Sequence record: MN850621.1
DNA: 64,000 bases
Strand: one strand, 5' to 3'
From: Escherichia phage dhabil
Shown: one piece after another, positions 7,939 to 64,000 of the stretch
Numbering within the stretch: the first letter of the stretch is position 1
How the letters are laid out: the number at the start of each line of letters is the position of its first letter
Notes under the pieces: model-generated
The model's input: the letters and a program-made list of their open reading frames with translations, nothing else
Databases searched by the model: none
What the model was told of the DNA's origin: nothing
Position numbers and translations under genes: made by a program

Positions 7939-9108
7939 TTAAAAATATTTCTTGTATGATGCCATTACTTTTTCATCGACATCATTATCAATTTGTGCTA
8001 CAAGGTAAGAACTGATTTCCACTTCCTGAGGAGCAGCCTGTACAGCATCAGAGTTCAGGTATTCACGAATCCAAGGATAAGGATGGCGAGTAGGAGCATC
8101 AGTAATAGGACATGGTAAACCACATTGCTTCATACGAGAAACTGTCAGGTAATCGACAAAACCACCCATGTTCTGAGTATTTAATCCAGGGCAAGTACCA
8201 TCTTTGAACAGGTGAGCGGCCCATTCTTTTTCTTGACGGTTAACTTCCATGAAAATATCAACTGCTTCTTGTTCACACTCTTGAGCAATTTTAACCCATT
8301 CATCGCCATCAGTGCCAAGTTGAAGTTGACGAATAATGTACTGAGTACCTTTAAGGTGAAGCTGTTCATCACGTGCAATGAACTTCATAATCTTAGCATT
8401 GCCTTCCATGATTTCCATGTTCTTATGGAAGTTAAAGGTGCATGCGAAAGATACATAAAAACGAATAGCTTCCAATGCGTTGATTACATGCAGGCAGAGG
8501 TAAAGAGAGCGCATTAGTTCGTATTTAGCGGTTTTAACACCTTCACTGAACTCATGGTATTCTTCTAAAGCATTTTGGTATTTACGAGTTTTCTCAATAA
8601 CATCATCATAATAACGACCAATAGATTCAGCACGTTTCATGATAGCTTCATCTAATAGAATTTCATCAAATACCTTAGATGGGTCTGTATAGAGGTTACG
8701 CATGATATGGGTATACGAACGAGAGTGAATGGTTTCACTAAAGGTCCATGTAGCCACCCATGTATCAAGGCTAGGGTCTGAAATCAATGCTTGGAGTGCA
8801 GCAGAAGGAGCACGTCCCTGGATACTATCCAGAAGTGATTGATACTTCAGGTTATTTGTAAAAATATTTTGCTGGAATTGTGGAAGCTTATTAAACTGGG
8901 CAGCATCCATCATCAAGTTAACTTCCTCTGGACGCCAGAAGAAACTCAACTGCTTTTCACAAAGCTCTTCGAATACTTTATGACGTTGGATATCGTAACG
9001 AGCAATACCCAATCCTGAACCAAAGAACATCGGTTCGACTAAAACATCAACTGGGGTAGTATTAAAAACTGTAGACATGTTATTCTCATTTGTTAGTGGC
9101 TCATCCAT
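7939..9108 (-). CDS. nrdB: Ribonucleotide reductase small (beta) subunit
   Basis: 389 aa class Ia R2-like sequence; uninterrupted, no intron. Confidence 0.9.
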   Translation of the reverse strand: MDEPLTNENNMSTVFNTTPVDVLVEPMFFGSGLGIARYDIQRHKVFEELCEKQLSFFWRPEEVNLMMDAAQFNKLPQFQQNIFTNNLKYQSLLDSIQGRAPSAALQALISDPSLDTWVATWTFSETIHSRSYTHIMRNLYTDPSKVFDEILLDEAIMKRAESIGRYYDDVIEKTRKYQNALEEYHEFSEGVKTAKYELMRSLYLCLHVINALEAIRFYVSFACTFNFHKNMEIMEGNAKIMKFIARDEQLHLKGTQYIIRQLQLGTDGDEWVKIAQECEQEAVDIFMEVNRQEKEWAAHLFKDGTCPGLNTQNMGGFVDYLTVSRMKQCGLPCPITDAPTRHPYPWIREYLNSDAVQAAPQEVEISSYLVAQIDNDVDEKVMASYKKYF

Positions 9109-9131
9109 GAGTCAATTATAATCATATTTTA

Positions 9132-11387
9132 TTAAAGCTTACAAGCTGCGCAATCATCGGCTTTAGGAGTTTCGATTTCGTAATCGTCAGTACCAGAGCC
9201 ATCACGGGTATTATGATAATAAAGGTTCTTACCACCAAAGTACCAGAAATATAACAGGTCATCAAGCATTACTGACATAGGAACTTTTCCTTTCTCATAA
9301 TTCTGAGGGTCGTAATACGTATTCGCTGATGCTGATTGGCAAATCCATTTCAACATAATTGCTACTTGGGTAAGATAAGGTTTATTACCTTTCTTAGCGA
9401 GGCTCCAAGCGTAATCATAGAGGCCTTGGTTATGTTCTACATTAGGAACTACCTGACGGAAGTTACCTTCTTTAGATTCTTTAATACTTACCGGACCACG
9501 CGGAGGTTCGATACCGTTTGTAGAGTTGGAAACTTGGCTGCTTGACTCGCATGGCATAAGTGCTGATAATGTGCTATTACGGATGCCATGTTTAGCCAAG
9601 TCTTCCCGCAACGACGACCAGTCACAAACATAGTTTGGGGCTGCGATTTGGTCAATCTTTTTATTGTACCAGTCGATAGGAAGCTCGCCTCGAGACCATT
9701 TAGTGTCTGAATAATACTCGCAAGGTCCTTTTTCTTCGGCCAGCTTGATTGATGCTCGGATAAGTCCATATTGTAATCTCTCAAACAATTCGTGAGTTAA
9801 ATCGTTTGCATCTTCATAAGAAGCAAAGTTGCTTGCTAACCATGCGGCGTAGTTAGTAACACCTACACCCAGGTTACGACGTTTCTTAGCCTTCAAAGCT
9901 TCAGGAACAGGATAGCTTTGATAATCTAATAGGTTATCAAGTGCACGTACCTGTACTTCAGCGAGTTCGTTGATTTTGTCTTGGTCTTGCCAATCAAAGT
10001 TATCCAACACGAATGCAGACAGCGTACACAACCCGATTTCAGCGTCCGGACTATTCACATCGGTGGTCGGGATAGCAATTTCACAACACAAGTTACTCTG
10101 GCGAATAGGAGCCTTTTCACGAATAAATGGTGTGAAGTTGTTAGTGTTATCAACAAACTGAGGATAAATTCGTGCAGTGCCTGAACGTTCGGTCATGAAC
10201 AATTCAAAGAGGTCGCGTGCTTTAATACGTTTCTTGCGAATGCTAGGGTCTTTTTCAGCCGCTTCATACAATTCACGGAAACGTTCTTGGTCTTCAAAAT
10301 AAGAATAATAAAGCTCACCGCCCATTTCATGAGGACTGAACAACGTGATGTAATCATTTTTACCGAAACGTTCCATCATAAGGTCGTTCAACTGGATTCC
10401 GTAGTCCATATGTCGAATACGGTTCTCATCGACACCTTTGTTGTTTTTCAGAACGAGCAGATTTTCAACTTCCAAATGCCAAATAGGATAATAAGCAGTA
10501 GCAGCGCCGCCACGGATTCCACCTTGTGAACATGATTTAACAGCAGTCTGGAAATGTTTCCAGAATGGAATAACACCGGTATGCTTGACTTCACCCATGC
10601 CAATACGAGAACCTTCAGCACGAATCATACCAACGTTGATACCAATACCGGCACGTTTAGAAATGTATTCAATTATTGAGTTAGCAGTTTTGTTAATAGA
10701 TTTCAGCGAGTCGCCTGCTTCAATAACCACACAAGAACTAAATTGACGGGTTGGAGTACGTGCTCCGGCCATAATAGGAGTAGGCAACGAAACCTGACGA
10801 GTACTTACGGCGTCATAAAAACGAATAATATGTGCTAAACGGTTACCTGGCTCGTCTTGGTGTAAGGCCATACCAATACACATGATAGCGAACTGAGGAG
10901 TTTCATAGATTTTACCGGTTGTTTTATCTTTAACCAGATATTTCTCTTTAAGCTGCATTGCACCAGCATAGGTTAATTCGAAATCGCGTTCATGCTTGAT
11001 ATGAGATTCTAAGAAAGTAATTTCTTCTGCAGAATATCGAGACAGCAATTCAGGGTCATATTTACCTTCGTTAACACAATAGGAAATATGGTCTATAAAA
11101 CTACGCGGTTCGAACTGCCCATAAACTTCTTTACGCAGTGCAAACATCAATTGCTTTGCAGCAACATATTGGTAATCGGGTTCTTCAACCGAGATAAGGT
11201 TGGCTGCTACCTTAACAGTCAGATTCTGGATATCTTTGGTGGTCATACCATCACGAAGATGGGATTTGATTTCTTCGTATAATTCATAGGGGTCGATTTG
11301 GGTTCCTTCACAGCCCCAAGTCAGAACTTTAATAATTTTTTGTGCGTCAAAATCTTGGGATACACCGCTACTTTTTTGTACTTGCAT
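9132..11387 (-). CDS. nrdA: Ribonucleotide reductase large (alpha) subunit
   Basis: 751 aa; ATP-cone N-terminus and class Ia catalytic core including C-terminal CxxC. Confidence 0.9.
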   Translation of the reverse strand: MQVQKSSGVSQDFDAQKIIKVLTWGCEGTQIDPYELYEEIKSHLRDGMTTKDIQNLTVKVAANLISVEEPDYQYVAAKQLMFALRKEVYGQFEPRSFIDHISYCVNEGKYDPELLSRYSAEEITFLESHIKHERDFELTYAGAMQLKEKYLVKDKTTGKIYETPQFAIMCIGMALHQDEPGNRLAHIIRFYDAVSTRQVSLPTPIMAGARTPTRQFSSCVVIEAGDSLKSINKTANSIIEYISKRAGIGINVGMIRAEGSRIGMGEVKHTGVIPFWKHFQTAVKSCSQGGIRGGAATAYYPIWHLEVENLLVLKNNKGVDENRIRHMDYGIQLNDLMMERFGKNDYITLFSPHEMGGELYYSYFEDQERFRELYEAAEKDPSIRKKRIKARDLFELFMTERSGTARIYPQFVDNTNNFTPFIREKAPIRQSNLCCEIAIPTTDVNSPDAEIGLCTLSAFVLDNFDWQDQDKINELAEVQVRALDNLLDYQSYPVPEALKAKKRRNLGVGVTNYAAWLASNFASYEDANDLTHELFERLQYGLIRASIKLAEEKGPCEYYSDTKWSRGELPIDWYNKKIDQIAAPNYVCDWSSLREDLAKHGIRNSTLSALMPCESSSQVSNSTNGIEPPRGPVSIKESKEGNFRQVVPNVEHNQGLYDYAWSLAKKGNKPYLTQVAIMLKWICQSASANTYYDPQNYEKGKVPMSVMLDDLLYFWYFGGKNLYYHNTRDGSGTDDYEIETPKADDCAACKL

Positions 11388-11808: not shown

Positions 11809-12668
11809 TCATACAGCCATCTTAGCCTTAATGGTAGGGTGTGATTCGTAACCAATGAGTTTAAAATCTTCATGGACCATATGCTCTGTTACCCAATGAA
11901 GCTGTAATGTCGTGCTCCAATCAGAGAATCCTTCAGGCCAATTAATTTCCAGTTCACAAAGCTCTTTAGGCTCACGACGAAGAACTTCTTGGCATTGTTC
12001 AACGTGGTTAGAATAGATGTGCGTATTGCCGCCTGAGAACACTAAATCACCAGGAATAAGATTACACATCTTAGCTACAATATGCACAAGAGCGGCGTAA
12101 GAGGCGATATTAAATGGCAATCCTAAGAACACGTCAACAGAACGTTGGTACCACTGGAGGTCAAGATGTCCATTACGAACGTTGAACTGGTAAAAACAAT
12201 GACATGGAGGAAGAGCCATCTGGTCGATTTCAGCCGGGTTCCATGCAGATACTATTTGACGTCGGTCATTAGGCATCTTTTTAATGCGGTCGATAATTTC
12301 TACAACCTGGTCGACACCACCAAAATCTCGCCATTGTTTCCCGTATACCGGACCAAGTTCACCACTATGATAACCTAGGTCTTTGGCCTGATTTTCATAG
12401 TTCTCGTCCCAAATAGTTTTGCCGCCAATTAATGAACCGTGAGTACGGAAACGAAGGTCATTAACGTTAGTTGAACCCGAAAGGAACCAAAGGAGCTCAG
12501 CAATACAGGCTTTCCATGCTAATTTTTTAGTTGTTACTGCAGGAAAGCCTTTAGTTAAATCAAAACGTAATTTAGTACCGAACAGTGCAATTGTACCGGT
12601 GCCGGTACGGTCGTCGGTTTCGTAGCCATTTTCCAGGATATCTTTAATTAAAAATTGGTATTGTTTCA

Positions 12669-12681
<13 letters not shown>
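11809..12681 (-). CDS. td: Thymidylate synthase
   Basis: 290 aa; active-site region PPCHCFYQF; continuous ORF, no intron or homing-endonuclease insert. Confidence 0.9.
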
Positions 12682-38573: not shown

Positions 38574-40784
38574 TTAAGCCGCTTCCACGGCTTTCATGAA
38601 TTTAACGATTTGAGCTACAGAAGCCTCGGTAATGGATGTTCCACGACGATACATGTAATCCGAAACTAAATGGTAATCGGATTCAAACTGTACAGTCATT
38701 TTATCATTGTTACTTGAAGCATTATTGGTTAGCGTATTGAACGTCGTGTTACAGATTTTCTTGATAACAGAAAGTTTGTCATCAGTGATATACCCATGGA
38801 AATTCATATAACGGAATATATCATAGAAATTGCTCAGACGAGTATATGCTTCAGACACCGGCTTATCACTGAAATATTTAGTCATAAAACCAAGCTCAGG
38901 GAACTTAGCAATAATTTCAAGATAATACCTTGCACGGGTATTACTACCAATATAATCATCAATATCTACAGCATCTAGTGCTTCGGCATAAGCTTCTAAC
39001 GTGGTTTCCATCAAGCATTCACATTGGCCTAACTTTTTAATCTTTTTGGCAATCTGAGGGCGAATGATATGGAATTCGGTAGCACCAATCAAATTAGCCA
39101 TACGGCACATGGTAGTGGTGTTGATGTCAAAGATACCATAAGCTTCATCCATTCCCATGATATCAGAACGACTACCAAACAATACGTACCCTGTAATTTC
39201 TTCTGCTTCTGCAGCAGTTAAGTATAAGGTCTCTTGTTGCCAACGCCCGTCTTTAATGAACCAACGATAAGCACTTGGTGTTTTAGGACGAGGTTCGGAT
39301 GAACGAACAGTAACCGGAATCCACGGCTTAACAATTTTATTCAGTTCAGAGACTTTATAAAAATGAATTGTGTCGCCTTTAAAAAGTTCTTTAACCTTTT
39401 CAAGTTGTTGCATTTGCAACATTGAATTCGGGTCAACAAAAATAAGGTCTGTTCTGTATTTAGGAATATTGTGCTCTTTAACAATTTTCTTGGCCGAAGC
39501 GCTGTTGTCCATTGCTAAGGCCCAAAGTCCTCGAACTAATGGCACACGACCCTTTTCATCATCATAAACAATATGGATTTCTTTATTATTAATACCTAAT
39601 AGGCCACTAAGTCCTGCTACCGAAGAAGTATTACCACTCGGCTTAATTCGTTTCAAACGTGGGTCCATACAAACTTCGTAAACAACACCCAAATTAATAA
39701 GGTCGTTTTGAAGTGTATAACGTTGGTACAATTTCTCGTATGTTAATTTTTCAGTTGTGAACTCTTTAGTAACGCCTCTTTTAGAAAGATAGTCGCGAGC
39801 ACTATAACCTAGGTTAGAAAGGTCACGATAAACATGACGTGGATTATCAGATTCAACCCATTCCTGTGTATCGTTTTTAAAGACCAATGCATCCAAGGCT
39901 TCGATACGAGTTGCGATATTTTCCATTGTGCGTTTATCAAGAGACAGCACTTCACGAGATGGAGCGATATCTAACGAACCCATAGGGAACTTAATATAAA
40001 CTACATCATGGCGAGTACGCATCCATGTGCCTTTAATATAAGCCGAATCCAATGGATAAACAATACCACCATAAACGGCATAAAGCCCTGAACGTTCAAA
40101 ATCACCGTAGCCGGTATCGGTTACAGCATAGTAGTCATCAAATTCAGGGAAATAATCAACTTCGGCCCCATCAACATCACCAAGCCCAATGAACGGGCGC
40201 ATGATATATCGAACTTCAGTTTCAAACTTACGGAAATCTTCTTCGTCGACAGGAACCGTGATTTCGATACCTGTTTTGTCGCCTGGTTGCATTGGTTCAA
40301 CGAATGTAGGTTTAATCTGCGGCCCGTCACCATCCATATAAGCTACATAACCGCGAACTTCACCATTATGCCAGGATGTAATATTAAACGTTTCGGTATA
40401 ACTGAACGGGGATTTAGAACCAAGGCCAAATCCACCAATGAAATCGTTAGAAGCAGTTTTAGATGATGCGAAATAAGAGTTATACAAACCGGTTTCGTTT
40501 TCATCACCACGAATCTGGAAATCGCTCATACCTGGACCGAAATCACGACACACAAAGCGTGGGTCGAGCTTACCAGGAACCTGTACTTTCCAACGTTCTT
40601 TATTACCATTCAGAATATGAGCATCGATCATGTTGGTAATTAGTTCACGAACTACAGCACGCACCTTATTACTATAAAGGTCTGATGAAAGAATTTTAAA
40701 GACCTTAGGTGAGGCCTGGATAGTAAATCCTGTGGACTTAGCACCATTACCAATGATTTGTTCTTTTTCGGTTTCAATAATCAT
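38574..40784 (-). CDS. rIIA: rIIA protein
   Basis: 736 aa, adjacent to rIIB; size and order as T4 rIIA. Confidence 0.85.
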   Translation of the reverse strand: MIIETEKEQIIGNGAKSTGFTIQASPKVFKILSSDLYSNKVRAVVRELITNMIDAHILNGNKERWKVQVPGKLDPRFVCRDFGPGMSDFQIRGDENETGLYNSYFASSKTASNDFIGGFGLGSKSPFSYTETFNITSWHNGEVRGYVAYMDGDGPQIKPTFVEPMQPGDKTGIEITVPVDEEDFRKFETEVRYIMRPFIGLGDVDGAEVDYFPEFDDYYAVTDTGYGDFERSGLYAVYGGIVYPLDSAYIKGTWMRTRHDVVYIKFPMGSLDIAPSREVLSLDKRTMENIATRIEALDALVFKNDTQEWVESDNPRHVYRDLSNLGYSARDYLSKRGVTKEFTTEKLTYEKLYQRYTLQNDLINLGVVYEVCMDPRLKRIKPSGNTSSVAGLSGLLGINNKEIHIVYDDEKGRVPLVRGLWALAMDNSASAKKIVKEHNIPKYRTDLIFVDPNSMLQMQQLEKVKELFKGDTIHFYKVSELNKIVKPWIPVTVRSSEPRPKTPSAYRWFIKDGRWQQETLYLTAAEAEEITGYVLFGSRSDIMGMDEAYGIFDINTTTMCRMANLIGATEFHIIRPQIAKKIKKLGQCECLMETTLEAYAEALDAVDIDDYIGSNTRARYYLEIIAKFPELGFMTKYFSDKPVSEAYTRLSNFYDIFRYMNFHGYITDDKLSVIKKICNTTFNTLTNNASSNNDKMTVQFESDYHLVSDYMYRRGTSITEASVAQIVKFMKAVEAA

Positions 40785-41575: not shown

Positions 41576-43393
41576 TTACGACATCCAGGCCTTACGGAGT
41601 TGAGGGTCGTTCCCGAGGAGCATTTCGAACTGTTCTTTCCAATCTTCAGGCAATTGAACTACATCAAATTTAGGGTCTTGAATCATTCGACGGTATTCAG
41701 CTTTCTCAAGAGAACCTAAACCTTTAATATATCGAATAGAATGTTTCGGTAGAGAGTCCTTGGCTTTGGTATAACTAGGAACATCATAAAACCATTCTTG
41801 TTCTTTACCGACCTGGGCAATAATCACCGGAGTTTTACAGAATCTCACTCGACCTTGTTCGAACAATTCAGGCCATTGACTAAAGAAGGCTAGCAATGAT
41901 GGATAAATCGAACCAGTACCATCCACATCAGCATCGGTCATAATGGCGATATTACGATAGTTGGTTTTATCTGCAGGTTCGCCAATAACCAATCCAGTGA
42001 TTGCACAGATATCAAATAGTTCCTTATTCTTCATGATATCTGTTGCTGTCATTCCCCAGGTATTCATAACCTTACCACGTAATGGATAACCACCTTGAAG
42101 GTCTTTATTACGGACTTCAATGAAAGGACCCATAGCGGAATCACCTTCAGTCAAGAACAGGGTTGTATCGGCATCTTTACCGTATAAGTTAGCTTTAATA
42201 TGCTTATGGACCTTGGCTTTAGAAGCTTTCTTAGCAGCTTTAGTTTCAGCAGCCTTTTCAGCTGCTAATTTACGTGCTAAAGCAGCTTCGACGATAGGCA
42301 TAATAAGCCCTTCGTTTTTAAGAATATACTGTGAGATTTTCTTTGCATCAATTTGAATATGATTACGAATTTCACCGAATGGTGACGTCAAACGCTCTTT
42401 AGTCTGGGAATCAAAACGCATATTACTCATATCACGAATGAACATTACCATCGTAAGGCATTCTTTAACACGAGCCTTTGTTACTTCAATTCCACGATAT
42501 TTCTTTTTAATACCAGGCAGAAGGTGCTCACAAATATCATCGAATACACATTCAACGTGGTGACCACCATTCTTAGTGTGGATATTGTTTACATAAGTCA
42601 GTTGACGGAAACCATCTGGAGATGTAGTAAATGCCATTGAGACATTATCGGTTTCTTGAATTACTACATCTTTACCAAATTGATTAGCATACTTTTTAAA
42701 GTTACCATCTACTTTTTTACCATTAAAAGTAAATTGGATACTAGGATAAATTACAGCTAGGGTTTTAAGACGATCTAAAGTAATATCCAGATAAATTTGG
42801 GTCAAACTATTTTCTTCGAAATGGTTAAAGTCTGGAGTGAATATAACCGAAGTGCCTTTATCTTTGGATTTCTTAGTAGTCCAACCTTTGTTTTCCATTC
42901 CGTTAGAACAGTTAACAGTAATCTCATTCTCACCATCAGAGGTGATGCCTGTGAACAAAACGGAGAAGATATTAGTTAAACTACTACCGACACCATTCAT
43001 GCCACCTGTCTTACGCTCTGCGTCATCTCCAAAGTTACCACCAGCCTTTGGAATAGTCCATGCAGCTACAGGACCTGGAATTTGTTCACCGTTTTGGTCA
43101 GTAACCATTGCTTGTGGAATACCACGGCCATTATCAGAAACTGAAACCTGATTATTCTTAATTCGGACATCAATTTTGTTTGCGAATTTAAAATTAGTAC
43201 GAATAGCTTCATCGACAGAGTTATCAATGATTTCATCAATTAATTTAACTAGCCCTGGAACATAGTTCACCTGTGTAAAATTACCGAACAGGAATCGACC
43301 ATGGGCTTCATTAGCACTAGAGCCAATATACATCCCACTACGTTTTTTGATATGTTCAATGTCGGACAGTACTTTAATTTCATTCTTAATCAT
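41576..43393 (-). CDS. 39: DNA topoisomerase II large subunit (GyrB-like ATPase plus Toprim), single unsplit gene
   Basis: 605 aa continuous ORF with GHKL ATPase N-terminus and Toprim region. Confidence 0.85.
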   Translation of the reverse strand: MIKNEIKVLSDIEHIKKRSGMYIGSSANEAHGRFLFGNFTQVNYVPGLVKLIDEIIDNSVDEAIRTNFKFANKIDVRIKNNQVSVSDNGRGIPQAMVTDQNGEQIPGPVAAWTIPKAGGNFGDDAERKTGGMNGVGSSLTNIFSVLFTGITSDGENEITVNCSNGMENKGWTTKKSKDKGTSVIFTPDFNHFEENSLTQIYLDITLDRLKTLAVIYPSIQFTFNGKKVDGNFKKYANQFGKDVVIQETDNVSMAFTTSPDGFRQLTYVNNIHTKNGGHHVECVFDDICEHLLPGIKKKYRGIEVTKARVKECLTMVMFIRDMSNMRFDSQTKERLTSPFGEIRNHIQIDAKKISQYILKNEGLIMPIVEAALARKLAAEKAAETKAAKKASKAKVHKHIKANLYGKDADTTLFLTEGDSAMGPFIEVRNKDLQGGYPLRGKVMNTWGMTATDIMKNKELFDICAITGLVIGEPADKTNYRNIAIMTDADVDGTGSIYPSLLAFFSQWPELFEQGRVRFCKTPVIIAQVGKEQEWFYDVPSYTKAKDSLPKHSIRYIKGLGSLEKAEYRRMIQDPKFDVVQLPEDWKEQFEMLLGNDPQLRKAWMS

Positions 43394-53261: not shown

Positions 53262-53393
53262 TTACTTTGAATTCGCCAAAGCTTCAATGATTTCTCTGTC
53301 TATTTCTTTAGTTATTTCGTTACGTAATAAAATAGCGGCCGAAGCCCTTTTCTTATTCAACTTTTTGAGTTGACGTTTATTTAAACGAGGCAT
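53262..53393 (-). CDS. Small basic protein (43 aa), not in ORF track
   Basis: MPRLNKRQLKKLNKKRASAAILLRNEITKEIDREIIEALANSK; ATG overlaps the gene 56 stop (TAATG); low confidence. Confidence 0.3.
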   Translation of the reverse strand: MPRLNKRQLKKLNKKRASAAILLRNEITKEIDREIIEALANSK

Positions 53394-53914
53394 TAATAAC
53401 CTCGGTCTTGACGAGCAAAGTTCTCGGCATTTTTCAGATAATACAGTTTAAAGATTTCTTCAGCGGTCAGTCCAAGACCCTGGAACATATTAAGAACAAA
53501 GTGCAGAATATCAATCATCTCGAATTTGATTTCGAGCTGGTCTTCAGGAGACAACTCGTCAATACGACGATTACGGAATTCAGCATGTTGGGCTTTCCAA
53601 GGCTTCCACACACTAGAGGCAGCTTTTTCGCCATTACTCATACCGCCAAGAGAAGTCAGCAGTTCACGGAATTCATCATCAATATAATCTTTCTGGTTGC
53701 GAAGCCAATCAACAACTTGACCTGCTGTAGCTAGTTCATCAGGATTGGTGTTGAATTCCGATTTTTCAGTGGCCAGACGAACCTGTAATGATTTCTGCAT
53801 ATCAAGCATAACTTGCAGAGGGTCTTTATCTTCGTGAATCAGAGCATTAAAATAAGCTTCTTCAGCTTTATCAGCACCAGCAATAAGTTGAGAACATTCA
53901 TTAAAATGAGCCAT
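53393..53914 (-). CDS. 56: dCTP pyrophosphatase gp56 (dCTPase/dUTPase, MazG-like)
   Basis: 173 aa helical ORF between soc and primase, as T4 gene 56; assignment by position and size, moderate. Confidence 0.7.
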   Translation of the reverse strand: MAHFNECSQLIAGADKAEEAYFNALIHEDKDPLQVMLDMQKSLQVRLATEKSEFNTNPDELATAGQVVDWLRNQKDYIDDEFRELLTSLGGMSNGEKAASSVWKPWKAQHAEFRNRRIDELSPEDQLEIKFEMIDILHFVLNMFQGLGLTAEEIFKLYYLKNAENFARQDRGY

Positions 53915-58852: not shown

Positions 58853-59166
58853 CTCTTAGATTTAATTTTATCCAGTTCTTCTTGTATTTGCATTGTAACA
58901 CATTTTTCTACATGAAGCGCTAGCTCTTCTTTTCGGTCTTCGGAAGGAGTTCCGAAATCAACCGACACTTTTCCATCTTTCTCAATAACAATATTCATCA
59001 CATAAATGATGTGAGCAGTGCCATCGGGTAATGTAAGCATAATTTCCTGCTTAACAGAACCCATTGACTTACGGATTATATCTAACGATTTCTCATAATA
59101 ACGAGGGTCACTAGGACCCTCTTCAGTATCTTTAACAAAATTATCTAAATCAGATAAATCAGTCAT
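58837..59166 (-). CDS. 40: Hypothetical protein in the gene 40 position (head assembly)
   Basis: 109-aa ORF between uvsX and 41; positional assignment. Confidence 0.5.
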   Translation of the reverse strand: MTDLSDLDNFVKDTEEGPSDPRYYEKSLDIIRKSMGSVKQEIMLTLPDGTAHIIYVMNIVIEKDGKVSVDFGTPSEDRKEELALHVEKCVTMQIQEELDKIKSKRWWKW

Positions 59167-60331
59167 CTAAATCCATCTCTTCTAAATCGTTTTCGATATC
59201 AGCAGCACTTTGAGCGTCACCACTCAATTTAACTGCAACGTTCTTAGAGACACGAGAGTTAATAAGGTCGTTCACGGCATCATCGACTTCTTTAATAGAA
59301 TTAATTGCACCAAGCTTATACTTATTCTCGATTGCTTCACGGAACGGGGCATGTTTAAACAGCGGTCCCCAGAACTCGACACAATCGGTAGCTTTAGCAC
59401 GCCATGATTTTTCTTCTTGAACCATTTCACCTGTAGTTTCGTCAAGGAATGCACGATTATACCAACCAGCTTTAGGTTTCACGACAAAGCCAATATCAGT
59501 AGCCATTTCAAGCAGACCACTAAACGGGTCGATACCACCTTCAAAGTTCACAGTAATTGGGAACGTTGATTTCTCTTTAACAGTACGAGATTTTTCGGCC
59601 TTCAGGGTGAAGTCATAACCAGTGAGCTCAGTACCATCTTTAACCTGACGTTTAGAGATAAAGAATACGGTAGAAGCAGAGTACAGAATACCAGTACCAC
59701 CACCCATAATCTCTTTAGGATACATTCCACCAATTTCCATAGCCGTATGGTTAATTGCTACGCAAGGAATGTCCTTGATAGTCAAATAAGGTGTTACGAT
59801 ACGGAACAGAGATTTCAGAGACTTAGCACGAGTCATATCACCTACAACTTTCTCGTTCAAAGCATCTTCGGTTTCTTTCTTAGAAGCGGTGTTACCGATG
59901 GAGTCGATAAAGATAATAACCTTTTCACCACGAGTAATTTCTTCCAATTGGTTGGTCATGTCAACCTTCAGTTGTTCGACTGACTGGATTGGCGTATGAA
60001 CCACACGTTCCAGGTCAACACCCATTGAACGGAAATAAGATTCTGAAGCACCGAACTCAGAGTCATAGAACAAGCAAATTGCGTCTGGATATTTCTTCAT
60101 ATATGCCGCAACCATAGTTAATCCAAACAACGTTTTAAAGTGTTTAGACGGTGCAGCAAAGATTGTCAAACCTGATTGTAAGCCTGCATTCAACGCACCA
60201 CCCAATGCAATATTAAGCATAGGAATACGAGTAGGAACTTCGTCACGACCATTAAACAATTTAGATTTGGTCAGATCGGCAGTCATTTTAGAAGTAGAAG
60301 CTTTAATCAAACGGGATTTTAAATCGGACAT
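59159..60331 (-). CDS. uvsX: UvsX recombinase (RecA-like)
   Basis: 390 aa; RecA-fold ATPase with Walker A AAPSKHFKT; colinear with T4 UvsX. Confidence 0.9.
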   Translation of the reverse strand: MSDLKSRLIKASTSKMTADLTKSKLFNGRDEVPTRIPMLNIALGGALNAGLQSGLTIFAAPSKHFKTLFGLTMVAAYMKKYPDAICLFYDSEFGASESYFRSMGVDLERVVHTPIQSVEQLKVDMTNQLEEITRGEKVIIFIDSIGNTASKKETEDALNEKVVGDMTRAKSLKSLFRIVTPYLTIKDIPCVAINHTAMEIGGMYPKEIMGGGTGILYSASTVFFISKRQVKDGTELTGYDFTLKAEKSRTVKEKSTFPITVNFEGGIDPFSGLLEMATDIGFVVKPKAGWYNRAFLDETTGEMVQEEKSWRAKATDCVEFWGPLFKHAPFREAIENKYKLGAINSIKEVDDAVNDLINSRVSKNVAVKLSGDAQSAADIENDLEEMDLDD

Positions 60332-60384
60332 TATATTTTTCCATAGGCACCATTATATTTTTCTCACGTTTTTAAGATAGGGTA

Positions 60385-60409
60385 ATTATATCACTTCACA
60401 GCTATAGCA
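60385..60409 (-). promoter_or_regulatory. Candidate MotA-dependent middle promoter for uvsX
   Basis: Minus strand TGCTATA (MotA-box-like) - 12 nt - TATAAT, about 55 nt upstream of the uvsX ATG. Confidence 0.35.
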
Positions 60410-60541
60410 TTACTTAATTCCTCGGTTGATAGCCTTATCGACTATCTTCCGAACTTCTCGTTTCTCGAGCCAGCATAATACTAGAAGGGCTCCGAAAGAG
60501 AATAATAACAAACCTATAAAAAGCAATAGAGGACCTAGCAT
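60410..60541 (-). CDS. Small membrane peptide (43 aa), not in ORF track
   Basis: MLGPLLLFIGLLLFSFGALLVLCWLEKREVRKIVDKAINRGIK; ATG overlaps the stop of the 297-aa ORF. Confidence 0.35.
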   Translation of the reverse strand: MLGPLLLFIGLLLFSFGALLVLCWLEKREVRKIVDKAINRGIK

Positions 60542-61428
60542 ACTACGTCCTCATAACGTGGCATTTCGTACTCAGAATGAATATGGGCACCGAAATAAAT
60601 GAATTCAGCCAGACCAGGATGGAATACTAAACCTGGGTTCTCATGATAAATGATATGTGGTCTTGATTTCAGAATCTGATAATATTCAACCTTACTCGGT
60701 TTGAATTTAACAATCTCTACATCAGGACGATAGTCTTCACGCTTAAATGAATCATTCGGGTCGGTGATATAAAGACGAGCACCTTCAGCGGCAGCTTGGT
60801 CTACAACTCTTTCGAATTGATAGCACTTATCCGAAATACGGAATGGATGGAAAATACCATCAATTTTAATAGGCGCTAGACCATCAGAGTAACGCTCAAT
60901 TACTGCAGGATTAATTACCTTTTGGTCTACAAAAATCTTATCAGAGGATGCACCTCGTGACACCAGGACGTCTTTCTGGCATTGATTCAGGACTGTAGTA
61001 TAAAGTGAACGTTCAACTGAAGCCACATCAATATCAATGAACTCATCGATATAATAACGAGGAACTTCAGGGTCCATTGTGATATTAAAGTTGAATTGTA
61101 CAGTATGAGCACCATCATAACCGGTGATATCGGTTACCAGTCCTGAGCAATCATAGTATTCGATTAGTGAATCGACTACAAACTCATTTTCGGACCAGAA
61201 ATGTTTACGGGTTTCATAAGCATTTTCTTTATACCAAAGTGGTACGAAATTCAGTTCTGGGAATAATTCAATGCATTCTTTGATATCGCTCGAATTTCTA
61301 GGATAAGCCAGATAATCACCTGGACGAGCACGATTTAAATGGAGTTGAAAATTACCGTCCTTAAGGACGGCATATTCACCTGTTTCGTAACTACGCATAC
61401 TGAAAATAGGAACGATAAACAAACTCAT
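60535..61428 (-). CDS. Hypothetical protein (297 aa) in the beta-glucosyltransferase slot
   Basis: ORF between uvsX and gene 42 where T4 carries bgt; no similarity to T4 beta-gt recognisable by eye. Confidence 0.55.
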   Translation of the reverse strand: MSLFIVPIFSMRSYETGEYAVLKDGNFQLHLNRARPGDYLAYPRNSSDIKECIELFPELNFVPLWYKENAYETRKHFWSENEFVVDSLIEYYDCSGLVTDITGYDGAHTVQFNFNITMDPEVPRYYIDEFIDIDVASVERSLYTTVLNQCQKDVLVSRGASSDKIFVDQKVINPAVIERYSDGLAPIKIDGIFHPFRISDKCYQFERVVDQAAAEGARLYITDPNDSFKREDYRPDVEIVKFKPSKVEYYQILKSRPHIIYHENPGLVFHPGLAEFIYFGAHIHSEYEMPRYEDVVC

Positions 61429-62123
61429 TTCAGGAAACCTCGGACGTAGTCAAAATCACGTTCAAACACGTGTGCACTTACCATGGTGTGGGAATACGTA
61501 CCTAAACCGACACCACACTGTTCGGCAATAAATGCCATCAGTTTACCCTGCAGATAGAAATCCAGCTGCATAACAACAGCGCAGTTTTGTGAACGCATAT
61601 GGGTATGTGCGTACAAACGACCATCACGAATATAATACGTTACTGAATCGGTGCACGGGTATTCTAAGGATTCGTCAGAATCAAGGAGGGCTTGGTCTTG
61701 TTCTTGGAGAATCTGGAACACAACTCTTCGCGAGTTAGCCTTTTCTTTAAGCTCTTTAAGTAGGGCTGGGAGCTGGGCCACAATTCGAGGTCCATAGAAA
61801 GTGTTGAAGTTTGCAGGCAATACGTCACTTTTCGGCTTATCAATGAACTTAGCAACATTAGGGTATTCCTTAAATGCTTCGGCAGCGTCAGTACCACCAG
61901 AAATCATAAATTTCCAAAAGGATTCGGCATATTCATAACTGATACGATTGATACGTGGGTCGGTGAATTTATAGGTGCTGGCATCCAGTACTTCTACTGA
62001 AGCAGAACCAATTTCATAACAGCGTCCGATACGAGAATCAACTGCAAACTGTGGAGCTTCCAGGATTTCTTCGTTCATTTGTTTAAATGCGTTTTCAAAA
62101 CTAACAGCGGTAATGTGTTTCAT
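61425..62123 (-). CDS. 42: Deoxynucleotide hydroxymethylase (gene 42 family, thymidylate-synthase fold)
   Basis: 232 aa; block EYPCTDSVTYYIRDGRLYAHTHMRSQNCAVVMQLDF aligns with the T4 gp42 active-site region FMCTNTVQYLIRD...NMRSNDVVFGF; otherwise diverged. Confidence 0.7.
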   Translation of the reverse strand: MKHITAVSFENAFKQMNEEILEAPQFAVDSRIGRCYEIGSASVEVLDASTYKFTDPRINRISYEYAESFWKFMISGGTDAAEAFKEYPNVAKFIDKPKSDVLPANFNTFYGPRIVAQLPALLKELKEKANSRRVVFQILQEQDQALLDSDESLEYPCTDSVTYYIRDGRLYAHTHMRSQNCAVVMQLDFYLQGKLMAFIAEQCGVGLGTYSHTMVSAHVFERDFDYVRGFLK

Positions 62124-62656
62124 TTATTCACCTTATTTTCAATATATTCGTTCAGACGTTTTAATTCTACCATATCAACATTAAGCAAATTATTATGACC
62201 GTCATGATTTAAGATTTTAAACACGTTTTCAAAACATGTTTCGTATTGCTGGATAGTTAGGTTGAACTCATCTTTGGTTAATTTAATAAGGTCATCTTCG
62301 AAGTCTTCGTCTAATGGGTTGCGAGTTAAAATAACCTCGATAACGTTAAATTCAGATTTAAACCCTTTCCAATCTTCCAGTTCTACATAAGGGTCCATTT
62401 CACCACGAAGGAATCCTGAGTAAACAATATTACTTGGATAACCACGGTCAAGGATATAAACGAAATTAGGGTCTAAAAACTTATACAGAGTTTCAACTAA
62501 AGCCTTATCGTTATCAGTTCCTAATGAAATACACTTGCCATTAATCTTTTTAGGAAAATCAATAAGGCGGTATTTCTTATTGGATAACAGATTTTTAATT
62601 AAAGTGGACTTCCCGGAATTATCCGGGCCGTCTATAACAATGATTTTTGGATTCAT
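62120..62656 (-). CDS. P-loop nucleoside/nucleotide kinase-like protein
   Basis: 178 aa; Walker A GPDNSGKST and a DRG(Y) element reminiscent of thymidylate-kinase-family enzymes. Confidence 0.6.
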   Translation of the reverse strand: MNPKIIVIDGPDNSGKSTLIKNLLSNKKYRLIDFPKKINGKCISLGTDNDKALVETLYKFLDPNFVYILDRGYPSNIVYSGFLRGEMDPYVELEDWKGFKSEFNVIEVILTRNPLDEDFEDDLIKLTKDEFNLTIQQYETCFENVFKILNHDGHNNLLNVDMVELKRLNEYIENKVNK

Positions 62657-63051
62657 GGATGATAGGCCTTATAACTATCAAGAGTTCCTTCACGAACCAA
62701 TTCTTTAAAGTGGTCAGGACGGATTGCTCGGTCATCGATGATAAAAGTATAACTCGGCTTGTGTGTAAGCAAATTGTGATATTTCAATCCAATTTTTTCA
62801 AGATTCTTAACCAATGCAGGAACTACTTCAACCAAGATTCGACCTGGGCCACATGAAGTCATGCCACGGGCAGTGAACAATGTAATCTCGTACCCTTCAT
62901 CATAAAGCTTATTAATCATGGACACCATTTCGGTGTCCGGTTTAAAGTTCTCATAATCACGGTCATGGTTCCAAATCGTGATTGTGTTATCGATATCAAA
63001 ACATAAATGTGGCTTATTTTCTACTCGATGCGACATTAAATTTTCTTCCAT
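62653..63051 (-). CDS. HAD-superfamily phosphatase-like protein
   Basis: 132 aa; HAD motif I FDIDNTIT, TAR element and IDDR (motif IV-like). Confidence 0.55.
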   Translation of the reverse strand: MEENLMSHRVENKPHLCFDIDNTITIWNHDRDYENFKPDTEMVSMINKLYDEGYEITLFTARGMTSCGPGRILVEVVPALVKNLEKIGLKYHNLLTHKPSYTFIIDDRAIRPDHFKELVREGTLDSYKAYHP

Positions 63052-63950
63052 TGTTTGTGGAGTTCAGTAGAACCTGTAGGTTTATATTTTACACCAGTTT
63101 CCTGGTCAAGCAAAACCCACTTATCAGGACAACGAGTAATAATTTGAGCCGTAATAGGGTCACGAACTTCATCGACAAATTCACCCGTAATAAGCTTACG
63201 CTTACGAGGATGCCGCTTCAGCAGCACACTCAGTTGATACAAACCATTATAATAAGCACCCAGAGCTTTCAGAGGGTTATTCTTAAAGTAACCTGCCAGA
63301 GCCATCCAAATAACGGCAATCCAGAGCTTGTGCTTAAATGTGCACATAGGGATATCGTCTAAAGGCATAACCTTTTCGATATCAACGAATACACGAGTTC
63401 CGTTACGAGTTAATCCACCCCATAGAGGGTCTGAGTTAAATTTATCATAGCCATCGATAGAATAAAGCACCTTAGCTTCATCATAAATCGCAGGGCCTTT
63501 AGAACTATTACCGAAATAACCGCGTGGGTCGATGATTTTAATATCACCTTCGTCCGACAGCATAATATTACTGTAGTGCGGGTCGCCATGAATAAGTTGG
63601 TATGGTTCTTTATGTTCAGACAGAATTTCTAGTGCATGGCGGAGAAGTTTTTCAGGGTCGCCTACTTTGAAATCGTTAACGTGGGTAATGCCTTGTGGAG
63701 CAAAGCCTTCAATCAATCCAGCAATAGAAGCATTACGAATAAGGACCTTGTCCAATACTTCTTTCTTAACATCAGAATACCATTGTTCATCGGACGGATT
63801 ATCGATAGTTCCACCAAATGAACGTAATGCACTAATGACCTTATAAACCATGAGGACTTTAGTTTCTTTGGACATAAAGCGGTAGGCATCTGCCATGGTA
63901 CGACCAAAGATACGTTCCATTTTAATGAATTCGCCTGGAGAAAAGTCCAC
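63036..63950 (-). CDS. APH/choline-kinase-fold phosphotransferase
   Basis: 304 aa; catalytic loop HGDPHYSN (Brenner motif) and IDPRG metal-binding element. Confidence 0.6.
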   Translation of the reverse strand: MDFSPGEFIKMERIFGRTMADAYRFMSKETKVLMVYKVISALRSFGGTIDNPSDEQWYSDVKKEVLDKVLIRNASIAGLIEGFAPQGITHVNDFKVGDPEKLLRHALEILSEHKEPYQLIHGDPHYSNIMLSDEGDIKIIDPRGYFGNSSKGPAIYDEAKVLYSIDGYDKFNSDPLWGGLTRNGTRVFVDIEKVMPLDDIPMCTFKHKLWIAVIWMALAGYFKNNPLKALGAYYNGLYQLSVLLKRHPRKRKLITGEFVDEVRDPITAQIITRCPDKWVLLDQETGVKYKPTGSTELHKQWKKI

Positions 63951-64000
63951 AATACTAGGAACAAATTCAGAATCAATAGAATTATACCAATTGATTTCTT

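Follow-up and report, generated by a model that had tools for sequence, protein, structure and literature searches.

Which enzyme stands, in a JS98-like coliphage, at the map position where phage T4 carries its β-glucosyltransferase gene b-gt, and which base would it modify? The window that we analysed, 64,000 nucleotides (nt) of Escherichia phage dhabil (sequence record MN850621.1), has at this position an open reading frame (ORF) of 297 amino acids (aa), which lies on the minus strand at 60535-61428, starts with ATG and begins MSLFIVPIFSMRSYETGEYAV. A first reading made from the letters alone, referred to below as the sequence-only reading, had suggested that this ORF encodes a replacement DNA-modifying transferase, which would use another donor than b-gt and act on 5-hydroxymethylcytosine (hmC). 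We propose here that the 297-aa protein is probably the first glycosyltransferase of the arabinosyl-5-hydroxycytosine DNA hypermodification pathway and that it adds the base-proximal arabinose. Phages that have this pathway are the RB69-like, the Acinetobacter DLP3-like and the Serratia LC53-like ones and, by synteny, the JS98-like relatives of T4. The window is from a Dhakavirus, that is, from a JS98-like coliphage; over positions 59100-64000 it shares 99.8% of its nucleotides with Escherichia phage dhaeg and 98% with JS10 and JS98.

Gene, family and fold of the transferase

The gene arrangement is as the sequence-only reading described it: a 43-aa ORF aside, the 297-aa ORF is the sole gene between uvsX on one side and a gene for a thymidylate-synthase homologue on the other, and the stop of the latter overlaps the start of the transferase gene by 4 nt (coordinates in Table 1). 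The protein matches phrog_3891 (PHROG 3891, function unknown) over residues 1-296 with an E value of 4.7e-159. There are 117 homologues in a 90%-clustered protein database, an exhaustive search with a hidden Markov model (HMM) of the family returned 238 cluster representatives, and 352 phage records have a copy. On this sequence evidence the 297-aa ORF is a real gene and no chance ORF.

That the protein has no recognisable motif, as had been noted at first sight, was borne out by the searches, in which neither Pfam (E <= 0.1) nor NCBIfam gave a match. Furthermore, none of 39 diverse members of the transferase family matched a glycosyltransferase family of Pfam at E <= 1, and a sequence-profile search of the PDB with the family profile gave no match. 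Because no curated family matches, the assignment of the 297-aa protein rests on orthology and fold.

With regard to orthology, the protein is 49.5% identical over its full length to DLP3_079 (gp79) and 70% and 65% identical to RB69p047 and RB69p046 (ORF047c and ORF046c), respectively (both by tblastn), and 64% identical to a copy at the corresponding position in Serratia phage LC53 (locus L015, 6699-7610). It has been reported that RB69 ORF047c and ORF046c are a single gene broken by a sequencing error (Lee et al., NAR 2026, PMC13326640). In the same study RB69 gp46:47 and DLP3 gp79 were modelled as a glycosyltransferase and named 'arabinosyltransferase 1' (PMC13326640). The sequence-only reading had recommended a comparison with the T-even phage reported to carry arabinosyl-hmC, and this was the right phage to compare.

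With regard to fold, an AlphaFold2 model of the 297-aa protein was built from a 39-sequence alignment, with a predicted local distance difference test score (pLDDT) of 94.8 and a predicted template modelling score (pTM) of 0.89, and it can be superposed on the BFVD models of the two RB69 half-ORFs with a template modelling (TM) score of 0.96. The model and Foldseek comparisons reveal the two Rossmann domains of the GT-B fold. Judged from the model, this is a GT-B enzyme of compact size, with about 70 residues fewer than usual. The invariant residues of the family cluster in the 39-sequence alignment in FxPFRxSD, TDPN, K246 and HPGxxE, which are motifs that would be expected of a nucleotide-sugar site. 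In the C-terminal domain R197, K246 and H270 are invariant and E275, which is part of HPGxxE, is mostly conserved; these residues are candidates for a counterpart of the Arg/Lys pair and the EX7E-type acidic residues in the nucleotide-sugar binding motif of GT4 enzymes.

The neighbouring synthase and the acceptor base

The sequence-only reading had taken the thymidylate-synthase homologue next to the transferase for T4 gene 42, and hmC for the acceptor. Neither assumption holds. The neighbour shares 79.7% of its residues with RB69 gp48 and 71% with DLP3 gp80, but its identity to T4 gp42 is only 25%, over 159 residues. When it is aligned to E. coli ThyA, the catalytic Cys146 is present, as is the N177D exchange, which in the thymidylate-synthase superfamily leads to dCMP specificity, and position 169 is Asn, so that the site reads RSQN where ThyA has RSCD (D169N). 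A PDB search with the synthase returned 9iqu, 9iqc and 9ir2 (named 'thymidylate synthase', 234-238 aa) at an E value of 2e-125, and T4 gp42 (1b49) at 1.5e-4 only. RB69 gp48 and DLP3 gp80 have been shown experimentally to make 5-hydroxy-dCMP (5hodCMP) with a flavin cofactor and with oxygen derived from O2 (PMC13326640), and D169N has been described as diagnostic for 5hodCMP synthases and was validated on nine further enzymes (Lee et al., PMC13326640). The 25% identity to gp42 together with D169N rules out a T4-type dCMP hydroxymethylase. Because the neighbour is an RB69-type D169N synthase, the acceptor base is likely, as judged from its sequence, to be 5-hydroxycytosine (5hoC) and not hmC, and the assay on hmC-DNA that had been suggested for the transferase would be the wrong test. 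Elsewhere the window also encodes a second, conventional (td-like) thymidylate-synthase homologue, whose identity to the 5hodCMP synthases is only about 24%.

Other transferases in the Dhakavirus genome

The Dhakavirus genome that was searched for other transferases and pathway genes consists of the window and, for the remainder, of the dhaeg sequence (loci L001, L013 and L014). At the sequence level (tblastn and phmmer), it holds no homologue of T4 α-glucosyltransferase (a-gt), T4 b-gt, RB69p003 or DLP3_076/077. The a-gt slot is empty of a transferase, and the slot between rIIA and gene 39, which in RB69 holds the second arabinosyltransferase, is occupied by a 107-aa DUF7367 ORF. In our phage collection, RB69p003-type genes are found only in Mosigvirus-like records (>=95% identity) and in Acinetobacter/Tegunavirus records (<60%), and an RB69p003-type transferase occurs in no Serratia phage record and in no Dhakavirus record. 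We also considered that the 297-aa protein might itself be a diverged copy of RB69p003, DLP3_076 or DLP3_077, and rejected this as there is no profile-profile relationship between them (hhalign probability 0.1%). Since no second or third transferase was found, the DNA of Dhakaviruses is predicted from these sequence searches to be mono-arabinosylated.

Two further genes of the RB69 cluster, RB69p055, which encodes an SIS-type arabinose-5-phosphate isomerase, and RB69p050 (gp50), which encodes a protein of the U32 family, have no homologue in the Dhakavirus genome by tblastn and phmmer. RB69, DLP3 and LC53 have their own arabinose-5-phosphate isomerase. E. coli supplies arabinose-5-phosphate through KdsD/GutQ, and with no isomerase of its own a Dhakavirus should depend on these host enzymes for this compound.

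Distribution across phages

The transferase and the D169N-type synthase occur together. The synthase was found in 363 phage records and the transferase in 352, and the counts for the two genes are identical in Escherichia (176), Acinetobacter (57), Klebsiella (26), Shigella (15), Enterobacter (9), Proteus (7) and Yersinia (6) phages. Among the records of Escherichia phages, 527 match the uvsX region and only 176 carry the transferase, a number equal to that of the records with the D169N-type synthase, which leaves the glucosyl-hmC T-even phages without the transferase gene. The sequence-only reading had named homology to a protein that glucosyl-hmC phages have at an unrelated locus as an observation that would count against a replacement transferase; the gene is absent from these phages. 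The linkage extends to distant relatives: in a 356-kb metagenomic phage contig (L010), genes for an isomerase, an AfhE-like protein, a synthase, a transferase and a kinase are clustered at 34-40% identity, and the synthase is again of the D169N type. The linkage of the transferase recurs in another locus (L017).

The DNA of Serratia phage LC53 has been reported to contain mono-arabinosyl-hydroxy-cytosine, that is, one arabinose per 5-hydroxycytosine. As this phage is mono-arabinosylated, has a 64% identical copy of the transferase and lacks an RB69p003-type transferase, the family would be the one that installs the first sugar, and with the co-occurrence and linkage described above this is the best argument available; it also leads to the prediction of mono-arabosylated DNA in Dhakaviruses. 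In the study by Lee et al., Dhakaviruses were counted, by synteny alone, with the phages that have syntenic clusters for arabinosylation (PMC13326640).

A gene for a thymidylate-kinase (TMK)-like kinase is adjacent to or overlaps the transferase gene in RB69 (L002), DLP3, LC53 (L015), L010 and L011, and it is also found beside the transferase in the galactose-using Rhizobium phage RL38J1 (PMC13326640). In at least nine representatives of 50% clusters the two are fused, in either order, into proteins of about 550 aa (Table 1). The fused domain is related to the stand-alone kinase (hhalign probability 96.6%, E 6.7e-10), and one of the fusion proteins, P0203, matches the NCBIfam dTMP kinase; a small HMM of the stand-alone kinases gave no match to the fused proteins, and the kinship is seen with hhalign and with the TMK models of Pfam and NCBIfam. 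Other fusions, in metagenomic members of the family, join the transferase to a KdsC-like HAD-IIIA phosphatase (P0131, P0143, P0151, P0168, P0172 and P0190), and in L017 such a HAD phosphatase-transferase fusion (8001-9650) lies between a thymidylate-synthase homologue and an SIS isomerase. Given that fusions also occur with the HAD phosphatase, a fusion marks a shared pathway and not necessarily consecutive steps. The kinase is a constant companion of the transferase family, although in RB69 5hodCMP is already handled by a gp1-type kinase.

Genes of the peptidase U32 family adjoin the synthase or transferase genes in several of these phages, namely in LC53 (L015, 4494-6004), in RB69 (RB69p050; L002, 8493-9662) and in L011 (9049-10125). 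The LC53 gene is paired with a chorismate mutase gene (CM_2). The L011 gene, 50% identical to RB69p050, lies beside the transferase homologue that is most distant, and within 17 kb there is no thymidylate-synthase homologue. RlhA and TrhP, which belong to the U32 family, hydroxylate RNA pyrimidines at C5 in a prephenate-dependent manner, and the phage U32 genes may provide an oxygen-independent route to 5-hydroxycytosine.

The operon and its pathway genes

The transferase gene is the last of five genes that overlap by 4, 4, 4 and 16 nt and that, in view of these overlaps, form a single operon (Table 1). As the sequence-only reading had seen, a kinase and phosphatase operon lies beyond the synthase gene, with a P-loop kinase, a HAD phosphatase and an APH-type kinase domain. 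A scan of 60000-64000 for promoters and terminators gave counts at or below those expected from shuffled sequence.

Table 1. Positions in the window of the transferase gene, its neighbours and other pathway genes, with the fusion proteins found in other sequences in the last row
Feature	Position	Strand	Assignment and basis
43-aa ORF, one predicted membrane helix, basic tail	60410-60541	-	accessory element, judged by sequence comparison
297-aa transferase ORF	60535-61428	-	predicted compact GT-B glycosyltransferase, orthologue of RB69 gp46:47 / DLP3 gp79
5-hydroxy-dCMP synthase, 232 aa, thymidylate-synthase homologue	61425-62123	-	Pfam Thymidylat_synt; identity, D169N, PDB matches
Thymidylate-kinase-like P-loop 'nucleotide kinase', 178 aa	62120-62656	-	Walker A, weak TMK/CMK matches, phrog_761
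HAD-family phosphatase, AfhF-like	62653-63051	-	NCBIfam capsule-biosynthesis phosphatase / HAD-IIIA, phrog_1238
AfhE-like protein, C-terminal APH-type kinase half	63036-64000	-	Pfam APH; gene continues past the window end
gp56-type dCTPase	53393-53914	-	Pfam dUTPase_2; dhaeg_232 annotated dCTP pyrophosphatase; RB69p028 counterpart
uvsX	59159-60331		Pfam T4_UVSX_C and RecA
td-like thymidylate-synthase homologue	11809-12681
rIIA	38574-40784
DUF7367 ORF, 107 aa	40982-41305
Gene 39	41576-43393
Transferase-kinase fusions			P0203, P0206, P0209, P0219, P0223, P0239, P0246, P0248, P0196

The kinase of the window is 38-40% identical to RB69p045 and DLP3_078, a family that Lee et al. labelled 'nucleotide kinase' with no role assigned (PMC13326640). 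The HAD phosphatase is 62% identical to RB69p051 (gp51) and 64% identical to DLP3_081. Its counterpart AfhF of phage HY126, which corresponds to RB69 gp51, is described as an arabinofuranose-1,5-bisphosphate 5-phosphatase that yields arabinofuranose-1-phosphate (He et al., as cited in PMC13326640). The AfhE-like ORF is 42-45% identical to RB69p052 (gp52) and DLP3_082 (gp82), and has no stop codon before the window ends. Its full-length counterpart dhaeg_214 is a protein of 557 aa with an N-terminal NTP_transferase domain followed by APH, and hence the ORF from 63036 is not a 304-aa gene with a GTG start, as it runs off the window and is the kinase half of the 557-aa protein. AfhE itself is described as combining an arabinose-5-phosphate 1-kinase with a UDP-arabinose pyrophosphorylase (He et al., as cited in PMC13326640). 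One member of the pathway is located outside the operon, the dCTPase, which clears dCTP and by this leads to the full replacement of cytosine by the modified cytosine.

On its other side the transferase gene is followed by the 43-aa ORF, which the sequence-only reading had described as a membrane peptide translationally coupled to the transferase. The tight arrangement is real, in that the stop of the transferase gene and the start of the 43-aa ORF have 7 nt in common (GTATGCTAG); 6 nt upstream of its ATG the small ORF has a ribosome-binding site of its own, GAGGA. It is however no obligate partner. Only 21 Dhakavirus records contain the ORF, JS98, JS10, IME08 and dhaeg among them, and in the VR5 lineage it is missing through a clean indel of about 120 nt, which leaves a gap of 77 nt between uvsX and the transferase gene and a transferase C terminus that reads '...EDVVL*'. 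A functional partnership with the transferase is ruled out by this distribution. The 43-aa ORF has no Pfam or PHROG match; between the window, JS10 and IME08 it differs, as compared by eye, by few substitutions, in which synonymous and conservative changes are mixed. It is plausible that it encodes a small membrane protein, and from these sequence comparisons it appears as an accessory indel outside the modification machinery.

The names that these genes have been given in GenBank are misleading. The transferase is still called a 'hypothetical protein' or, wrongly, an 'RNA polymerase binding protein'; the latter name is attached to the LC53 copy and is found among the listed features in IME341, vB_EcoM_005 and C6. 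The synthase appears as 'dCMP hydroxymethylase', 'thymidylate synthase' or 'deoxycytidylate 5-hydroxymethyltransferase', and the HAD phosphatase as 'phosphoheptose isomerase' or 'capsule biosynthesis protein'.

Proposed function and alternatives

According to our proposal, the thymidylate-synthase homologue would convert dCMP to 5-hydroxy-dCMP using flavin and O2, and phage kinases would turn this product into its triphosphate, with dCTP being removed at the same time by the dCTPase, so that 5-hydroxycytosine would replace cytosine in the phage DNA. The AfhE-like and AfhF-like proteins would turn arabinose-5-phosphate, supplied by the host enzymes KdsD/GutQ, into UDP-arabinofuranose (UDP-Araf). 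The 297-aa GT-B enzyme would then transfer arabinofuranose from UDP-Araf to the 5-hydroxyl group of cytosine, giving an ether-linked, α-configured sugar. The orthology, the fold, the gene context, the co-occurrence and the absence of other transferases were established in this analysis, and the modification chemistry, the activity of the 5hodCMP synthase and the activities of AfhE and AfhF are taken from the literature. From both together we infer that the 297-aa protein is the transferase and that its donor is UDP-Araf. It would be a retaining enzyme and, by default and by analogy to the T4 enzymes and to DLP3 gp76/gp77, would act on DNA after replication. What remains of the sequence-only reading is its core, a replacement DNA-modifying transferase that has another donor and works together with the adjacent kinase and phosphatase genes, which agrees with the orthology to the predicted 'arabinosyltransferase 1', the GT-B fold and the AfhE/AfhF-type neighbours; its premises of a gene 42 and of hmC have been given up.

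Several observations weigh against our proposal. In the literature covered, the transfer of arabinofuranose from UDP-Araf to the 5-hydroxyl group of cytosine has been proposed but demonstrated for no member of the family. When single DLP3 transferases, gp79 among them, were given UDP-Araf or UDP-arabinopyranose (UDP-Arap) and 5hoC-DNA, no arabinosylation was observed (data not shown; PMC13326640), and Lee et al. state that DNA and a mononucleotide cannot be told apart as acceptors of the first sugar (PMC13326640). The 297-aa protein is also strongly acidic, with a net charge of -17, a pI of 4.9 and a family median of -11; the values for T4 b-gt, T4 a-gt, RB69p003 and DLP3_077 are +6, -5, -3 and -8, respectively, and a range of +6 to -8 for DNA-acting phage glycosyltransferases makes the acidity of the family odd for an enzyme supposed to act on DNA. 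These points lead to a different, pre-replicative order of events, in which the acidic transferase would arabinosylate a free 5-hydroxy-dC nucleotide, the TMK-like kinase would phosphorylate the product on the way to the triphosphate, which the polymerase would then incorporate. In a variant of this idea the transferase would be active only with the kinase-like protein as an obligate subunit, and this would account for the negative result that was published for the assay in vitro. The constant neighbourhood of transferase and kinase in RB69, DLP3, LC53, L010 and L011, even in the galactose-using RL38J1, and the fusions in both orders are as such a scheme would have them, and as the RB69 gp1-type dNMP kinase phosphorylates 5hodCMP (PMC13326640), the additional kinase is left without an assigned job. 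However, the transferase is fused to a KdsC-like HAD phosphatase as well, the kinase could simply be devoted to 5hodCMP or have a structural role beside the transferase, and a negative result in vitro can have trivial reasons. Moreover, the characterized sugar additions of T-even phages are all post-replicative, including that by DLP3 gp76 and gp77 on DNA (PMC13326640), and DLP3_077 acts on DNA despite being acidic. We therefore consider a nucleotide-level or kinase-dependent reaction, both forms taken together, to be unlikely. If either were true, transferase and kinase together would make up the conserved core module in every system that glycosylates 5-hydroxycytosine, be it with arabinose or with galactose.

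Other points that speak against the proposal concern the identity of the enzyme and of the sugar. No curated glycosyltransferase family of Pfam or NCBIfam matches the 297-aa protein or its 39 relatives by sequence, hhalign finds no profile similarity to the RB69p003 family, and in the Foldseek search of the PDB UDP-N-acetylglucosamine (UDP-GlcNAc) 2-epimerases of the non-hydrolysing type (7vza, E 2e-6) come out marginally ahead of transferases. UDP-GlcNAc 2-epimerases have a GT-B fold but are not transferases, and the 297-aa protein could accordingly be a donor-reshaping enzyme of this kind, with the real transferase unrecognised elsewhere. We think this very improbable. By sequence no homology to a non-transferase family was found, which the sequence-only reading had considered as possible counter-evidence, and none of the 39 family members matches Pfam Epimerase_2; in addition, a Dhakavirus would then have no transferase, and in the cluster of the mono-arabinosylated LC53, too, no other GT-B protein is present. 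The published route to UDP-Araf, as it is relayed in PMC13326640, needs no epimerase. As to the sugar, literature searches found no report on the composition of Dhakavirus DNA, the cluster of these phages is reduced, with no homologue of the isomerase RB69p055 or of the U32 protein RB69p050, and the family has weak matches in Rhizobium-type phages, of which RL38J1 was reported to have galactose as base-proximal sugar (PMC13326640). A transferase that places a sugar other than D-arabinofuranose on 5-hydroxycytosine in Dhakaviruses might be imagined from this, though we would give it hardly any weight, because the phages still have genes of the AfhE and AfhF type, with products 42-64% identical to the enzymes of the arabinose pathway, the transferase has 64-70% identity to its copies in the arabinosylated LC53 and RB69, E. 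coli provides arabinose-5-phosphate, and the clusters of Dhakaviruses have been counted among those for arabinosylation (PMC13326640).

Comparison with known systems

A review from 2010 had raised the puzzle of how JS98 and RB69, in which a 'gene 42' and a dCTPase are not accompanied by a glucosyltransferase, protect their DNA. A survey from 2021 listed RB69p047 without a function and mentioned groups that have arabinose-pathway genes but 'no known arabinosyl transferase'. For phages of these types the question of DNA protection was largely answered in 2025-2026 with arabosylated 5-hydroxycytosine. The system has thus already been described, on the basis of experiments for its chemistry and for the synthase, whereas the transferase family owes its name to prediction; the residual interest is modest and lies in the unproven first transfer and in the kinase that goes with it.

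The enzyme that the locus first calls to mind, T4 b-gt (PF09198), has the same slot between uvsX and a gene for a thymidylate-synthase homologue, and it is likewise a phage GT-B enzyme that uses a UDP-sugar and a C5-oxygenated cytosine, as is known for b-gt and proposed for the window protein. The lack of resemblance that the sequence-only reading had noted by eye was confirmed at the sequence level (BLASTP, E 0.65), and PF09198 matches b-gt at an E value of 9e-98 but not the window protein. A b-gt that has diverged beyond recognition was rejected for this reason, and as far as the model can tell, kinship to the T4 glucosyltransferases extends to the fold class only. The two enzymes also differ in charge, b-gt being basic (+6) and the window protein acidic (-17), and in their substrates, which are UDP-glucose and hydroxymethylcytosine for b-gt and, by prediction, UDP-arabinofuranose and 5-hydroxycytosine for the window protein. 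Furthermore, b-gt is an inverting enzyme, whereas the window enzyme most resembles retaining enzymes of the GT4 type; the base-proximal arabinose has been reported to be α-linked (PMC13326640). A similar relationship holds for the synthase and T4 gp42, which have in common the thymidylate-synthase superfamily, the catalytic Cys, the dCMP-specifying N177D and an equal map position. However, besides the low identity of 25%, the window synthase has D169N, and for its relatives at 71-80% identity the synthesis of 5-hydroxy-dCMP with flavin and O2 has been proven.

The retaining GT4-type enzymes sucrose-phosphate synthase (6kih), BshA (6n1x), MshA (3c4q) and PimA (2gej) are 9-11% identical to the window protein. 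They differ from it in their length of 360-400 aa, compared with 297, and in having small metabolites or lipids as acceptors, and Pfam Glycos_transf_1 matches none of the 39 members of the transferase family. The second and third arabinosyltransferases, that is, RB69 gp3, the HY126 glycosyltransferase (PDB 9iqz and 9ir0), 'Aat' of Bas46 and gp76 and gp77 of DLP3, have the same predicted donor as the window protein, but they are about 70 residues longer and show no sequence or profile similarity to it. DLP3 gp76 and gp77 have been shown to add arabinose to arabinose on DNA (PMC13326640), and Bas46 'Aat' has been reported to be deletable.

The closest known counterparts are RB69 gp46:47 and DLP3 gp79, which are orthologous to the window protein over the full length and whose genes, like that of the window, lie directly downstream of a D169N synthase gene and near genes of the AfhE and AfhF type. 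The arrangement differs in that the kinase gene follows the transferase gene in RB69, DLP3 and LC53 but is upstream of the synthase gene in the window, and in that some Dhakaviruses have the 43-aa ORF in addition, unlike RB69 and DLP3. Compared with RB69 and DLP3, the Dhakavirus cluster is minimal, with no isomerase, no U32 protein and no second or third transferase found. Dhakaviruses are used in phage-therapy cocktails, and from their minimal five-gene operon we would predict a DNA with mono-arabosyl-5-hydroxycytosine, a modification that affects sequencing, restriction and sensitivity to CRISPR.

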